Below are positions 6,226-11,135 of a stretch of 11,135 bases of DNA, one piece after another. A model generated the notes under the pieces. That model searched no databases. It saw only the letters and a list, made by a program, of their open reading frames with translations, and was not told the DNA's origin. The stretch's first letter is position 1, and each line of letters opens with the position of its first letter. A program made the translations under genes and the position numbers. Source of the DNA: a virus (lineage: Duplodnaviria; Heunggongvirae; Uroviricota; Caudoviricetes); the IMG/VR virus record IMGVR_UViG_2675903606_000019, positions 1 through 11,135 of that record. One strand, 5' to 3'.

Positions 6226-6632
6226 CAGCACAGATAGCGGCTTACGGTCGGCTGGTGGACGACCCGCAGGTAAAACAGACCAGCAAGGGCACACCGATGA
6301 CGCTGGCGCGTATGGCGGTATCACTGCCATGCAGTCAGGCACAGGACGGACAGGCGACGTTATGGCTATCGGTCATCGCATTTGGTAAGCAGGCCGACTT
6401 CCTGGCTAAACATCAAAAAGGCGACGTTGCCAGCGTATCCGGCACGATGCAGGTAAGCCAGTGGACCGGACAGAACGGGGAGACGCGTCAGGGTTATCAG
6501 GTTATTGCAGACAGCGTAATCAGTGCCCGTGCGGCACGTCCTGGCGGGAACAGACGCAAAACCACAGGCGCACAGGGTAATCAGCCACCAGCGGGAGGCG
6601 ATGACCCTTACGGTGATGATATTCCGTTCTGA
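6222..6632 (+). CDS. ssb: Single-stranded DNA-binding protein (SSB), short form with canonical acidic C-terminal tip
   Basis: 136 aa. OB-fold-like core (GRLVDDPQV..., W...FGKQADFL..KG..V...G......W....G..R) and C-terminus ending DDPYGDDIPF, matching the conserved SSB DDDIPF tail that recruits partner proteins. Confidence 0.85.
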   Translation: MTAQIAAYGRLVDDPQVKQTSKGTPMTLARMAVSLPCSQAQDGQATLWLSVIAFGKQADFLAKHQKGDVASVSGTMQVSQWTGQNGETRQGYQVIADSVISARAARPGGNRRKTTGAQGNQPPAGGDDPYGDDIPF

Positions 6633-6642
6633 GGGGGTGACG

Positions 6643-6915
6643 ATGGTACATGACCGCATAGCGGAAGAACTCGAAGCGAAAGGATTTTACCGGAGGGCGG
6701 CGGCGCGATGGGGTGAAGTCATGATGCTGGTGGAGACAGACAAGGAACGGCATCACATCACGATGCGACGGCTGGAATGTTCCAGGAAGGCACAGAGGCC
6801 ACCGGAGCCGCCGGATAACTTCGGAGACCTGAGAAAGGCAGTCGATCGCACTTATGCTGAAATGGGTATAGATGGTGTAAGCGATGAAATATGGCGTAAT
6901 TACCCAGGCAGCTAA
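6643..6915 (+). CDS. PerC-like small transcriptional regulator (90 aa)
   Basis: ATG at 6643 with RBS GAGGGGG 5 nt upstream (the track ORF 6523..6915 is in frame but its 5' part overlaps ssb). Motif EELEAKGFYRRAAARWGEVMM resembles the PerC-family signature (G-[FW]-[WY]-RRAA-x-RW) as I recall it. Confidence 0.55.
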   Translation: MVHDRIAEELEAKGFYRRAAARWGEVMMLVETDKERHHITMRRLECSRKAQRPPEPPDNFGDLRKAVDRTYAEMGIDGVSDEIWRNYPGS

Positions 6916-6921
6916 TCAACA

Positions 6922-6943
6922 GCCGGAGTAATCCGGCTTTTTT
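6922..6943 (+). terminator. Rho-independent terminator after the replication module
   Basis: Stem GCCGGA/TCCGGC with GTAA loop followed by TTTTTT (6938-6943). Confidence 0.7.
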
Positions 6944-6956
6944 GTACCCAAAAAAA

Positions 6957-6992
6957 GCCCGATAAGTACAGGAGGCATCTTATCGGGCTTTT
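6957..6992. terminator. Second hairpin terminator, potentially bidirectional
   Basis: 10-bp stem GCCCGATAAG/CTTATCGGGC with 12-nt loop. A-run upstream (6950-6956), TTTT downstream, and a further T8 run at 7003-7010. Confidence 0.5.
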
Positions 6993-7071
6993 GCATATGA
7001 GGTTTTTTTTGGTGCACTGACACACATGATCGGGATCATCATTTCATAATTTGCAACACAACTCAACATCA

Positions 7072-7099
7072 TTGCATAAAATGCAATCATGATTATAAT
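7072..7099 (+). promoter_or_regulatory. Strong sigma70-like promoter for the capsid operon (-35 TTGCAT, 16-bp spacer, -10 TATAAT)
   Basis: TTGCAT at 7072-7077 and a perfect TATAAT at 7094-7099. Located about 55 nt upstream of the first late-operon start codon. Confidence 0.5.
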
Positions 7100-7103
7100 C
7101 AGA

Positions 7104-7119
7104 TCTGGATGAACATCCA
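7104..7119. promoter_or_regulatory. Perfect inverted repeat CTGGATG-AA-CATCCAG at the predicted transcription start
   Basis: Seen in the sequence. Followed within 6 nt by a T6 run (GATTTTTTAAG). Could be an operator or a 5' RNA hairpin/attenuator. A second dyad, ATGATC-GG-GATCAT, lies upstream at about 7026-7039. Confidence 0.45.
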
Positions 7120-7155
7120 GTTATGATTTTTTAAGTCAAAGAGGAATTTCTTACT

Positions 7156-7362
7156 ATGGCTGAAGAGAAAAAAGGCGGTGTTTCGGTGTACATAAGCCCC
7201 GACATCGTGAAGGCGCTCAAGGAACGCCACCAGCAGAACGTAAAAGCAGGCATTGCGGCAGGACTTGATCCGCTGGCGATGGTTGAGCCGTCAACAGGCT
7301 GGCAGGTACGCGCCTATTTACGCGCGGCGCTGGGTATGAATCAGGTTCACGGGGGTGAATAA
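7156..7362 (+). CDS. Hypothetical protein (68 aa), first gene of the capsid operon
   Basis: RBS GAGGA 10 nt upstream. Its stop TAA overlaps the major capsid gene start (TAATG at 7360-7364). No family recognised. Confidence 0.6.
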   Translation: MAEEKKGGVSVYISPDIVKALKERHQQNVKAGIAAGLDPLAMVEPSTGWQVRAYLRAALGMNQVHGGE

Positions 7363-8417
7363 TGACAGTAAAAGCAATAGCACTTAACACTAACCAGCTT
7401 TTTGTGTACCTGAATCGCGAGGATATTGCGGAATTTAAATTCAGTCCGCTGTTTACCGCGCTGTTTTTCCCGAACGTGGCGACATTCAACACACAGGACA
7501 TCATGTTAGATAACCTGGATATTGAAGAAGTCACTATGTCGGCGTTTTGTTCGCCTATGGTGGGTAGCCAGGTTCAGCGCGATAAAGGGTACGAAACAAG
7601 CATTATTCGCCCTGGCTACATGAAGCCAAAACACGAAATCGATCCATTAAAAACAATAATGCGCATGGCTGGAGAAGATCCAGCACAGCTTAACGACCCT
7701 ACCTACCGCCGTATGCGCCTGATTACTGGCAACATGCGCCGCCAGATAAACGCCATTAAAGCGCGCGTGGAATGGCTGGCGGTAAATGCGGTAACGACCG
7801 GAAAAAACATCATTGAGGGCGAAGGCATAGAGCGCTATGAAATCGACTGGAAGATACCGGAAAAAAACATCATAGAGCAGGCCGACGGTAAAAAATGGTC
7901 AGAGCAGGACAAAGACATACACGACCCAATCTATGACATTGAGCTATACGCAGATCAGGCAGGTTGCCCCGCCAACGTCATGATTATGGGCGTTGATGTA
8001 TGGCGCATGTTACGCAGCTTTAAAAAATTCCGTGAACTGTACGATCTCTCCCGTGGTTCAGAATCCGCCGCAGAGCTGGCATGTAAAAACCTGGGCGAAG
8101 TGGTGAGCTTTAAAGGCTATCTTGGTGATCTGGCCCTTATCGTCTATTCCGGCAAATACACTGACAGCGACGGCACAGAAAAATATTTCCTTGAGCCTGA
8201 TTTGCTGGTCCTGGGCAACACCAACAATAAAGGGCTGGTGGCCTATGGTGCGATTATGGAACAGGAAGCGGTAAGAACGGGCGCAACGCAAAACATGTTT
8301 TACCCGAAAAACTGGATTGAAGACGGCGATCCGGCGATTGAGTACGTGCAGACACACAGCGCACCGCAGCCTGTTCCGGCAGATATTCGCAAATTTGTTA
8401 CCGTCAAAATTGGTTAA
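7362..8417 (+). CDS. Major capsid protein, lambda gpE family
   Basis: 351 aa. Multiple blocks match phage lambda gpE as recalled: FKFSPLFTALFF (lambda FKFDPLFLRLFF), PGYMKPKHEIDP (PGYVKPKHEVNP), EDPAQLNDPTYRRMRLITGNMRRQ (EDPQNLADPAYRRRRIIMQNMRDE), YPKNWIEDGDPAIEYVQTHSAP (YPKNWVTTGDPAREFTMIQSAP). Confidence 0.9.
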   Translation: MTVKAIALNTNQLFVYLNREDIAEFKFSPLFTALFFPNVATFNTQDIMLDNLDIEEVTMSAFCSPMVGSQVQRDKGYETSIIRPGYMKPKHEIDPLKTIMRMAGEDPAQLNDPTYRRMRLITGNMRRQINAIKARVEWLAVNAVTTGKNIIEGEGIERYEIDWKIPEKNIIEQADGKKWSEQDKDIHDPIYDIELYADQAGCPANVMIMGVDVWRMLRSFKKFRELYDLSRGSESAAELACKNLGEVVSFKGYLGDLALIVYSGKYTDSDGTEKYFLEPDLLVLGNTNNKGLVAYGAIMEQEAVRTGATQNMFYPKNWIEDGDPAIEYVQTHSAPQPVPADIRKFVTVKIG

Positions 8418-8428
8418 CGGTGGATTCT

Positions 8429-8764
8429 ATGAACACTCCATACATTGAGTTATTTGCAGGCAGTCAGCAGGTATCAACGACGCTGGTACATTTTGCCGCT
8501 GATGCTGGCGTTATTCAGGAATTTACCCCGCTGATGCTGGCGGACAATGGCGAGTTTAAGCCGTGGGATGGTCAGGAATCTGGCAAGGCTGTTTATCTGA
8601 CCTCGTACCCCGTTGACACGTCGACGCAGAAATCAGCACAGTGCTATAAGACGGGGATATTCAATATCGCCGCCGTTAACTGGCCTGAGAGCGTCGACAC
8701 CGATGCGAAAAAATGCGCCGCCTTTGCGGGTTCTGGCGTATCCGTTCAGCCGCTGGCCCGATAA
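8429..8764 (+). CDS. Head decoration protein, lambda gpD family
   Basis: 111 aa from ATG 8429 (the track starts at GTG 8420); RBS GGTGGA 5 nt upstream. Matches lambda gpD blocks: TPLMLADNGEFKPWDG (lambda TPLMLDTSSRKLVAWDG), YKTGIFNIAAVNWPESVDTDAKKCAAFAGSGVSV ([35 protein letters not shown]). Confidence 0.85.
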   Translation: MNTPYIELFAGSQQVSTTLVHFAADAGVIQEFTPLMLADNGEFKPWDGQESGKAVYLTSYPVDTSTQKSAQCYKTGIFNIAAVNWPESVDTDAKKCAAFAGSGVSVQPLAR

Positions 8765-8776
8765 GCAGGGGGAACG

Positions 8777-9190
8777 ATGGCAACGAATGAAAGCATCATG
8801 GCGCTACCGCTGGCGAGTAAATTTAAAGCCGAAGCGCGGGCAATGGCTGACAGAGGGTTATCAACCTACGAGGCCGTATATCAACTCAACAAACTGGAAG
8901 AACAGGACAAGCCGCGCGCTGATGCGATTATGGCGCTTCATGAACATAACGACTATCAGCCGCTGTTACGTGCAATGGCAAACGTGCCATGTATTAGCGT
9001 CGATAATGCTCGTGAAATCCTGAACATGACCATAGAGCAGGAGCGCCCAAAGGTTGCACCAGAGCTTACCGCAGCCTTTGAAAACTTTATGGACATGCAC
9101 AGCCCGCAAGCCGTATCAGCTGGCATGGCATACGATGGCAGAAACCAGGGCGATGACGGCGACATCGATCACATACTGAAAACCATCTGA
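8777..9190 (+). CDS. Hypothetical protein (137 aa), last gene of the capsid operon
   Basis: RBS AGGGGGA 4 nt upstream of the ATG. Acidic C-terminus. No resemblance noted to lambda FI/FII/W as I recall them. Followed by a strong terminator. Confidence 0.65.
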   Translation: MATNESIMALPLASKFKAEARAMADRGLSTYEAVYQLNKLEEQDKPRADAIMALHEHNDYQPLLRAMANVPCISVDNAREILNMTIEQERPKVAPELTAAFENFMDMHSPQAVSAGMAYDGRNQGDDGDIDHILKTI

Positions 9191-9196
9191 GACAAG

Positions 9197-9220
9197 GCCG
9201 GAGAAATCCGGCTTTTTTTT
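9197..9220 (+). terminator. Strong rho-independent terminator (GNRA tetraloop hairpin plus T8)
   Basis: Stem GCCGGA/TCCGGC with GAAA loop and 8 T (9213-9220). The stem is identical to that of the terminator at 6922-6943. Confidence 0.8.
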
Positions 9221-9298
9221 ACGGGTCCTTTCCGGCATATGGACCCGTTACGGGGCGGCGACCTCGCGGTTTTTCGCTATTTATGAGCCTTTTCAGGG
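9221..9298. other. Lambda-type cos site (cosQ-like, cosN 12-nt cohesive end GGGCGGCGACCT at 9253-9264, start of cosB)
   Basis: ACGGGTCCTTTCCGG...GTTACG-GGGCGGCGACCT-CGCGGTTTTTCGCTATTTATGA closely matches the right and left termini of phage lambda as I recall them (right end ...ACGGGTCCTTTCCGGTGATCCGACAGGTTACG, left end GGGCGGCGACCTCGCGGGTTTTCGCTATTTATGA...). Sequence diverges from lambda after about 9298. Confidence 0.8.
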
Positions 9299-9397: not shown

Positions 9398-9940
9398 ATG
9401 AAATCGCACCTGATGAACAAAAAAAACATGGCGAAAAGCTGCCGTGTAAGTGCGACAGCGTTCGACAAGTGGGGAGTGACTCCCGTTGAACGTAAAGGCC
9501 GTGAGGCGTTTTACGATGTTGCCAGCGTGATAGACAATAGGGTTAACAATGCAATTAGCCAGCTTACAAACGACAAAGGCGATATTGATGATGATGAACT
9601 CTTACGAGTCAGGATCAGATTACTGACAGCACAGGCGGAGGCGCAGGAACTTAAAAACGAGCGCGATCGCGGTGACGTGATCGATACTGAGTTTTGCCTG
9701 TACGCGCTTTCAAAGCTGGCGAGTCAGATTTCATCAATCATGGACAGCCTCCCGCTTACTATGCAAAGGAGCTTCCCACAGATTACCCCCGCCATGCTGG
9801 ATAGGCTTAAAAGGGAAGTGGTTAAAGCCTGTAATGCCAGTGCCAGAGTTGCCGACAACCTCCCACAGATACTGGCTGATTACTTGAAAGAAACAACCGG
9901 AAACGTACCGGAAAAGTTGCAGCCGAATAAAGATAAGTAA
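9398..9940 (+). CDS. Terminase small subunit, lambda Nu1 family
   Basis: 180 aa. C-terminal two thirds align with lambda Nu1 as recalled: RLLTAQAEAQELKNERDRGDVIDTEFCLYALSKLASQISSIMDSLPLTMQRSFPQ (lambda RLTRAQADAQELKNARDSAEVVETAFCTFVLSRIAGEIASILDGLPLSVQRRFPE). N-terminal region is more divergent but still shows NKK...W...G.PV.R.G....YD.A.VI. Confidence 0.85.
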   Translation: MKSHLMNKKNMAKSCRVSATAFDKWGVTPVERKGREAFYDVASVIDNRVNNAISQLTNDKGDIDDDELLRVRIRLLTAQAEAQELKNERDRGDVIDTEFCLYALSKLASQISSIMDSLPLTMQRSFPQITPAMLDRLKREVVKACNASARVADNLPQILADYLKETTGNVPEKLQPNKDK

Positions 9941-10924: not shown

Positions 10925-10976
10925 TTTTGCGATTTTTGGCACTTTTTGCGGTGAAAATTATTTAATTAAATCAACG

Positions 10977-11135
10977 TGTTATGTGAAATAAGTTATATAT
11001 AACAGCAATAAATAATGCGAGAATAAACGGCACGATGATCTCGGTGGCAAAACGGATACCGCAGAGAATAATGACCAGCATTCCCAACATAATGACGATT
11101 TTTAGGCCATTGAGCGTGATGATCGGCTTTGCCAT
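10977..11135 (-). pseudogene. tqsA: Truncated 5' fragment of a tqsA-like (AI-2 exporter family) membrane protein gene; likely chromosomal flank interrupted by the element
   Basis: Minus-strand ORF of 52 codons, [52 protein letters not shown], then TAA. The first 46 or so residues match the N-terminus of E. coli TqsA/YdgG as I recall it; the reading frame then diverges and stops, where the native protein continues for about 300 more residues. Confidence 0.55.

Follow-up and report, generated by a model that had tools for sequence, protein, structure and literature searches.

A 137-amino-acid acidic protein, encoded by the last gene of the capsid operon of an EcCICFT073-type island, is very probably, judging from pairwise and profile comparisons, a homologue of the C-terminal tail of the lambda proteins gpC and Nu3. 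We characterized its gene in an 11,135-nucleotide stretch of viral DNA (the window; IMG/VR virus record IMGVR_UViG_2675903606_000019). The protein consists of two ~44-residue repeats followed by a C-terminal tail, it is encoded directly after genes for a gpE-like capsid protein and a gpD-like decoration protein, and it is under purifying selection. The explanation that we mildly favor as a whole is that it represents a stand-alone gpC/Nu3 scaffold module, co-transcribed as the last member of a four-gene satellite capsid module. Its best reading in terms of function, to which we give about an even chance on sequence grounds, is that of an internal scaffold of the Nu3 type that lacks a protease part and serves the gpE-like capsid protein of the same island.

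Results

An EcCICFT073-type island with a bounded capsid unit

By its gene content, the window is an EcCICFT073-type Gram-negative PICI. It carries genes for an integrase, an AlpA-type regulator, a DUF927 primase, an SSB and a PerC-family regulator, followed by the capsid unit, cos, a gene for a Nu1-like TerS and a 93-aa ORF, and it is collinear with EcCICFT073 (L006:32931-43655). All the features that define this island type were found, namely int, alpA, a primase/rep gene, a post-ori module with cos and Rpp/TerS, a size of ~10-11 kb and, as judged from a related island, an att of its own; portal, protease and large terminase genes are absent from the island. The protein under study is 92% identical to the product of L006:42084-42497, a 137-aa gene after c1500, and c1501 is listed as 137 aa in the supplement of PMC6092414. 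The high identity, the equal length and the place after c1500 thus identify our gene as the c1501 orthologue.

The place of RppA in EcCICFT073 is occupied in the window by the gene for a Nu1-like small terminase (9398-9940; PF07471, 2e-23; 35% identity to lambda Nu1), and the Nu1-like protein and RppA are unrelated. The 93-aa ORF downstream was considered as a candidate Rpp and rejected, because a PDB sequence search gave no Rpp match. On the plus strand at 1839-2864, a 341-aa ORF of odd composition is probably not a real gene; related islands annotate small minus-strand genes there (YlcI/YnfO family and hypotheticals). The right end of the window (10971-11135, minus strand) encodes a hydrophobic 54-aa N-terminal fragment. 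In E. coli RM10466, where a related island splits tqsA, the flank that corresponds to this end is annotated as split tqsA (AI-2 transporter), so that insertion of this island lineage into tqsA, with disruption of the gene, is possible.

The capsid unit comprises four genes in the order orf68, gpE-like, gpD-like and the gene for the 137-aa protein (Table 1). A hairpin after the PerC-family gene (6921-6938) precedes it and a terminator-like hairpin follows it, so that the four genes form a bounded unit; as the second hairpin, which with its T-run was placed at 9194-9215, begins 4 nt past the stop codon of the 137-aa ORF, this gene closes the unit. The earlier sequence-only reading had described an unassigned, acidic 137-aa protein that ends the capsid operon and whose gene follows the gpD-like gene with a good ribosome-binding site, and our analysis upheld this description. 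The ORF is as proposed and ends before a hairpin with a T-run, the protein is acidic (pI 4.78, net charge -9, 22 D+E versus 13 K+R, 15.2 kDa), and the stop codon of the gpD-like gene (8762-8764) lies 12 nt 5′ of the ORF, with an AGGGGGA sequence in between. The assignment to capsid morphogenesis was borne out as well, the upstream genes matching PF03864 and PF02924, and curated libraries were silent on the 137-aa protein itself.

The lambda-type cosN lies ~60 bp from the end of the gene, which is therefore the last one ahead of cosN. Beyond this site, most of the next ~22 nt (to ~9290) also match lambda, and the cosB-side sequence past ~9290 diverges both from lambda and from EcCICFT073. No sigma-70-like promoter was found on the plus strand ahead of the capsid unit (6921-7155), which hints at activator-dependent expression. 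The ORF of the PerC-family regulator (6523-6915) overlaps the end of the SSB gene and its Pfam match runs from residue 41 onward, so that an internal start is likely.

The gpE-like major capsid protein (MCP) shares 43% identity with lambda E and 46% with the MCP of the prophage at icd in CFT073. The gpD-like ORF, when listed from GTG 8420, has 114 codons; since its orthologues have 111 residues and begin with MDTPYI, ATG 8429 is probably the real start. The product of orf68 has 68 residues, the length of lambda gpW, but shows no similarity to gpW; the gene is mosaic, with 69% identity in RM10466 versus 93% for the adjoining MCP. When all proteins of the module were searched by BLASTP, the counterparts in lambda or the helper were E, D, the gpC tail and Nu1.

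Table 1 Features of the capsid unit and of the 137-aa protein in the window
Feature	Position	Strand	Details
orf68 (c1498 orthologue), first gene of the capsid module	7156..7362	+	phrog_3255, 8e-37
gpE-like major capsid protein (c1499 orthologue)	7362..8417	+	PF03864, 5.5e-49
gpD-like head decoration protein (c1500 orthologue)	8420..8764	+	PF02924, 3.7e-18
SD-like ribosome-binding site AGGGGGA	8767..8773	+	3-4 nt 5′ of the ATG of the 137-aa ORF; direct reading of the sequence
CDS of the 137-aa protein	8777..9190	+	ATG 8777, stop 9188-9190; 137 aa; ORF list
Repeat 1 (aa 7-50), degenerate	8795..8926	+	internal local alignment; natural one-repeat deletions
Repeat 2 (aa 51-94)	8927..9058	+	matches IM..EA.GRE...LA..PGMT.E.A..IL of lambdoid gpC/Nu3 tails
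C-terminal tail (aa 95-137)	9059..9187	+	TAAFENFMDMHSPQAVSAG motif, acidic/Gly stretch, terminal DIDHILKTI
Intrinsic terminator-like hairpin and T-run	9194..9224	+	9 pairs, 5 GC; conserved in CFT073
cosN GGGCGGCGACCT	9253..9264	+	identical to the lambda 12-nt cohesive end; alignment with the lambda left end and CFT073

Similarity to the tail of lambdoid protease/scaffold proteins

The 137-aa protein had no match in Pfam or NCBIfam (E ≤ 0.1), including the connector and Packaging_FI (PF14000) families, and none among PDB sequences. In PHROGs, it falls into phrog_1999 (unknown function; 1.3e-63), and the sole annotated match was that of its residues 45-119 to positions 494-567 of the 583 positions of phrog_53, 'head maturation protease' (7e-10). 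A tblastn search of phage records also returned a single match, the extreme C-terminus of an S49 protease ORF in phage 204576 that lies directly upstream of gpD-like and gpE-like genes. By BLASTP, residues 49-131 aligned with residues 416-493 of a 501-aa S49 peptidase of the CFT073 icd-prophage (37% identity, E = 2e-10), whose gene precedes D and E genes. This lambdoid prophage has been described as the helper of EcCICFT073.

Lambda Nu3 matches the same icd-prophage peptidase (2e-31), with the single repeat of lambda falling on repeat 2 of the prophage protein. A direct BLASTP comparison of the 137-aa protein with lambda Nu3 gave nothing, and the link needed intermediates and profiles. Using hhalign, we aligned the family of the 137-aa protein with the helper-type tails (97.8% probability, E = 7e-13) and with the lambda-type Nu3 tails (85.8%, E = 5e-6; 72 columns, residues 47-124 against gpC 360-433); the lambda-type and helper-type tails aligned with each other at 98.5%. 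Control comparisons with W, FI and FII of lambda and the helper, and with lambda D, Nu1, the portal and gpC 1-300, were negative (E = 0.04-0.9; 0.13 for gpC 1-300). The homologous span covers residues 47-131 and reaches the extreme C-terminus of the lambdoid S49 protease/scaffold proteins, that is, the C-terminal scaffold module of gpC/Nu3 represented by the C-terminal part of phrog_53.

No S49 domain was found in the protein or anywhere within the window. The arrangement of the gene also departs from that of lambda Nu3 in the strict sense, which is defined by an internal in-frame start in the protease gene and a position immediately upstream of D and E. Here, the gene is separate and has its own ribosome-binding site, and the order runs orf68, E-like, D-like and then this gene, with MCP and D genes upstream in 80/80 related loci and orf68 in 78/80. 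A set of uniform, 131-137-aa lambda-type matches was considered as stand-alone Nu3 genes and rejected, as these are contig-edge truncations of phage gpC: many assemblies (metagenome contigs L014, L015, L016 and L017) break gpC genes of the lambda type at much the same place, which leaves C-terminal fragments of 131-137 aa at the contig starts.

The sequence-only reading had found no match to lambda FI, FII or W, and both BLASTP and hhalign agree. Lambda Nu3/gpC was absent from its list of candidates, yet proved to be the remote match of the protein. These searches bear on the proposal that the protein is a head-tail connector or head-completion protein, or else a gpFI-like packaging chaperone. 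Many homologues in NCBI clusters are named 'phage head-tail connector protein', and the size and acidity of the protein resemble those of lambda FI (132 aa). By contrast, the comparisons with W, FII and FI of lambda and the helper by BLASTP and hhalign were negative (E = 0.19-0.86), the connector and Packaging_FI families gave no match at the threshold stated above, a Foldseek search with a low-confidence model found nothing in PDB or BFVD (see below), RefSeq complete genomes name the gene a hypothetical protein, and the positive homology is instead to the protease/scaffold tail. We therefore regard this proposal as very improbable, and with it the suggestion of a head-completion factor made in the sequence-only reading. 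The 'head-tail connector' label of NCBI is unsupported by HMM, profile or fold evidence.

Repeat architecture and predicted structure

An internal alignment, natural deletions of one unit and a repeat HMM together divide the protein into a degenerate repeat 1, a repeat 2 and a tail (Table 1). Residues 5-50 aligned with residues 49-94 with a score of 43, compared with 19.1 +/- 3.9 for shuffled sequences (z = 6.2, 0/5000). Three natural variants of 93 aa (P0027, P0029 and P0031) lack exactly residues 21-64, one 44-aa unit, in frame; the deletion runs from RAMA to RAMA, with a CG.GCAATGGC DNA microhomology at the junction. These variants are one-repeat forms, like the tail of lambda, and they keep the C-terminal tail.

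Phage tails of this kind comprise one (lambda) or three (CFT073-type) ~40-aa units, IM..EA.GRE..LA..PGMT.E.A..IL, followed by a F.HFM..HSP..V-like tail. An HMM built from the phage repeats alone matched residues 51-82 of the 137-aa protein (i-E = 2e-5), in which the ~40-44-aa IM..EA.GRE..LA..PGMT repeat is thus present, and repeat 2 aligns with lambda Nu3 119-160 and with residues 416-450 of the CFT073 icd-prophage S49 protein. In the N-terminal third, the same HMM did not score above shuffles (52/300 reach the score); in the equivalent segment of the island homologue P0045, it gave 1e-5 and 0/300 shuffles. The tail aligns with the prophage S49 tail TTAMFEHFMANHSPAAVQGG...DGDAD and with the TALDRLM..AP motif of the lambda type, and ILK and the C-terminal end are invariant among divergent homologues of the protein.

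An AF2 model, built from an 11-sequence alignment, was all-helical with a mean pLDDT of 62.8; good confidence was limited to residues 1-50, and the tail scored poorly. A Foldseek search with this low-confidence model against PDB and BFVD (E ≤ 0.001) gave no match and no connector fold. Among the checks proposed in the sequence-only reading, the one for remote homology gave a profile match to the gpC/Nu3 tail, and structure prediction gave an AF2 model with which Foldseek matched nothing.

Distribution and selection

A profile search of 1.84 billion representatives gave 13 matches only, which indicates that the family is narrow; two of them (P0046 and P0048) were discarded as spurious, being repeat or ankyrin proteins. 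A contig scan of species-representative genomes returned no relative. Within E. coli, 597 of 5426 complete genomes, about one in nine, contain the block of gpE-like, gpD-like and 137-aa genes at a query coverage of 80% or more, and O157:H7 strains are among the matches listed.

Conservation was examined in a sample of 80 IMG/VR loci, in 76 of which the 137-aa ORF is intact. Downstream of the capsid module, 35 of the loci carry a Nu1-like gene, 22 carry Rpp and 9 carry neither, so that the capsid module is combined with differing packaging strategies. Over 759 allele pairs, the dN/dS of the gene was ~0.27. The gene is under purifying selection, and this ratio together with the intact reading frames places it beyond a chance ORF. 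Divergent homologues with 30-53% identity (P0045, ~30%; P0039, ~50%) keep the order orf68, MCP (351 aa), D and X, in which X is the homologue, and islands of the P0045/P0039 type differ in their replication modules and in the chromosomal genes that flank them.

These data can be set against the view that the protein does little or nothing and is left over from a phage head module, having stayed with the capsid and decoration genes in a dispensable 'adaptable' region. Its gene is the fastest-evolving one of the module (30% identity between lineages versus 62% for MCP), one-repeat deletion variants occur, and in the published work described below no phenotype was found for c1499 or c1500 and c1498-c1501 could be replaced by cargo. 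A remnant is made less likely, however, by the dN/dS and the intact ORFs given above, by the frequency of the block among complete E. coli genomes, by a length and architecture that are kept at 30% identity across island lineages, and by deletion variants that remain in frame and retain the tail. We consider that the remnant view is unlikely to be correct.

Published experiments on the orthologous genes

None of the papers found on EcCICFT073 gives c1501 a function; in them, c1501 serves as a marker or cargo site. Deletion of c1499 (MCP) or c1500 (decoration) left transfer and lambda interference unchanged (PMC6092414), and phi80 still transferred the island when c1498-c1501 had been replaced by cas9 or melA cargo (PMC10530653, PMC10460865). 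According to the published data, then, the capsid module is dispensable for laboratory transfer with lambda, phi80 and the CFT073 helper. With lambda and EcCICFT073, the packaged DNA was all phage-sized and small capsids were not seen (PMC6092414, which leaves unstated the marked island used). We entertained the idea that c1501::tetA breaks the orthologue and that the capsid module of the published islands was therefore broken, and dropped it for the tetA island. The arms of 'c1501::tetA' end at the c1501 stop codon and resume at the terminator (L006:42438-42560), which puts the cassette right after the stop codon and just upstream of cos. If the c1501::tetA island was used, the coding sequences of c1498-c1501 were intact in the experiment that gave phage-sized DNA.

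The same experiments bear on a decoy or competitor role, in which the Nu3-like tail would bind helper gpE (or gpC/gpB) and poison procapsids or redirect them to a smaller size; the protein would then target helper proteins, either to interfere or to redirect size, in a role analogous to that of SaPI CpmB. Such a role could be accommodated by the 37% identity to the tail of the CFT073 icd-prophage protein and by an island of ~1/4 of the helper genome size, and remodelling of helper capsids is described as common among satellites in passages of PMC6893505 and of a cf-PICI preprint. On the other hand, lambda plaques were not reduced by a pBAD18 clone with c1501 as its sole island gene (pJP2216; PMC6739421). 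The only cloned gene that reduced them was c1503 (RppA), with similar results for phi80, and deletion of c1503 restored lambda plating almost fully (PMC6739421). Packaged DNA of phage size also speaks against a decoy. So does the fact that the island has a gpE-like protein of its own, with 43-46% identity to its phage counterparts, so that cognate pairing is the simpler explanation. We judge a decoy improbable, whether it is framed as binding to helper proteins or by analogy with CpmB.

Among the roles suggested in the sequence-only reading, that of a helper-capsid inhibitor is contradicted for lambda by the pJP2216 result. A size determinant was the closest guess, since the protein is homologous to the scaffold tail of Nu3/gpC and shell assembly is governed by proteins of the scaffold class; a change of size, by contrast, finds no counterpart in the phage-sized DNA packaged with lambda.

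Discussion

The scaffold of lambda is Nu3, which forms dimers and interacts with E, C and B (PMC3224144). If the 137-aa protein acts as a scaffold, it would, like Nu3, bind the interior of the shell protein via its repeat/tail module and self-associate. It could then chaperone or nucleate the assembly of the island's gpE-like protein into procapsid shells or mixed shells. The portal, the protease and the large terminase would come from the helper, given that the island lacks them, and the gpC-type protease of the helper would presumably remove the scaffold. Several observations count against the scaffold reading: the protein is without the N-terminal part of Nu3 (the S49 overlap and the linker), the genes are arranged as E, D, scaffold, opposite to the phage order, the module was dispensable and the packaged DNA phage-sized in the published experiments, the link to lambda Nu3 is remote, and the mean pLDDT of the model is low.

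An extended proposal, which we think has a small chance of being right, is that the gpE-like, gpD-like and Nu3-like trio forms, with orf68, a self-sufficient shell-building kit for use with other natural helpers. Conceivable roles for such a kit are the production of satellite-specific capsids around a stolen portal and the rescue of mobilisation by prophages with defective E, D or Nu3. Lambda has a T=7 head and a 48.5 kb genome; simple volume scaling from these values, a matter of arithmetic and not a finding, puts the capacity of a T=3 shell at ~14 kb, near the ~11 kb of the island. If the kit proposal is true, classical PICIs would be intermediate between satellites that steal whole capsids and self-building cf-PICIs.

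What is new here is a stand-alone, satellite-encoded member of a known scaffold module. The finding improves the annotation of a gene already on record and does not describe a new kind of system. The gene sits in the best-studied Gram-negative PICI, yet it has been treated as hypothetical, mislabelled 'head-tail connector' or used as a cargo slot. Once its Nu3-type character is recognized, these islands are seen to encode shell, decoration and scaffold proteins as a coherent set, and not two stray capsid homologues. It also sharpens the question of why islands that are reported to be packaged in helper-sized capsids retain a conserved capsid module under purifying selection. Furthermore, the module of repeats plus tail, which occurs with one repeat in lambda, two in the islands and three in CFT073-type prophages, is a candidate for the coat-binding element of lambda-type scaffolds.

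Compared with the C-termini of lambda Nu3/gpC and of the CFT073-type S49 proteins, the 137-aa protein has the same repeat and tail motif, is likewise acidic (pI 4.78 versus 4.53 for Nu3) and predicted to be helical, and its gene, like that of lambda Nu3/gpC, shares a head module with genes of the gpD and gpE types. The protein differs in repeat number (two; lambda has one and the CFT073 prophage protein has three) and, relative to lambda Nu3, in being the product of a stand-alone satellite gene that is not nested in a protease gene and that follows E and D instead of preceding them, and in having neither an S49 domain nor a low-complexity linker. EcCICFT073 carries the orthologue c1501 at the same place between c1500 and cos; the island in the window differs from EcCICFT073 in its Nu1-like TerS instead of RppA, its DUF927 primase and its putative tqsA insertion.

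SaPI CpmB, an internal scaffold, and SaPIbov5 Ccm are likewise satellite-encoded capsid-assembly proteins, and Ccm, like the c1499-type gene product here, is homologous to the capsid protein of the helper (PMC5052747, PMC8569155). We detected no sequence relationship between either of them and the 137-aa protein. For CpmB and Ccm, the formation of small capsids from helper proteins has been demonstrated, whereas no such capsids were seen for the EcCICFT073 type with lambda. The cf-PICIs, such as EcCIEDL933, resemble the island studied here in that both are PICIs that encode capsid proteins of their own. The cf-PICIs have a full head and packaging set (MCP, protease, portal, connectors, HNH, TerS and TerL), whereas the present island type brings only an MCP, a decoration protein, a scaffold-like protein and either TerS or Rpp.
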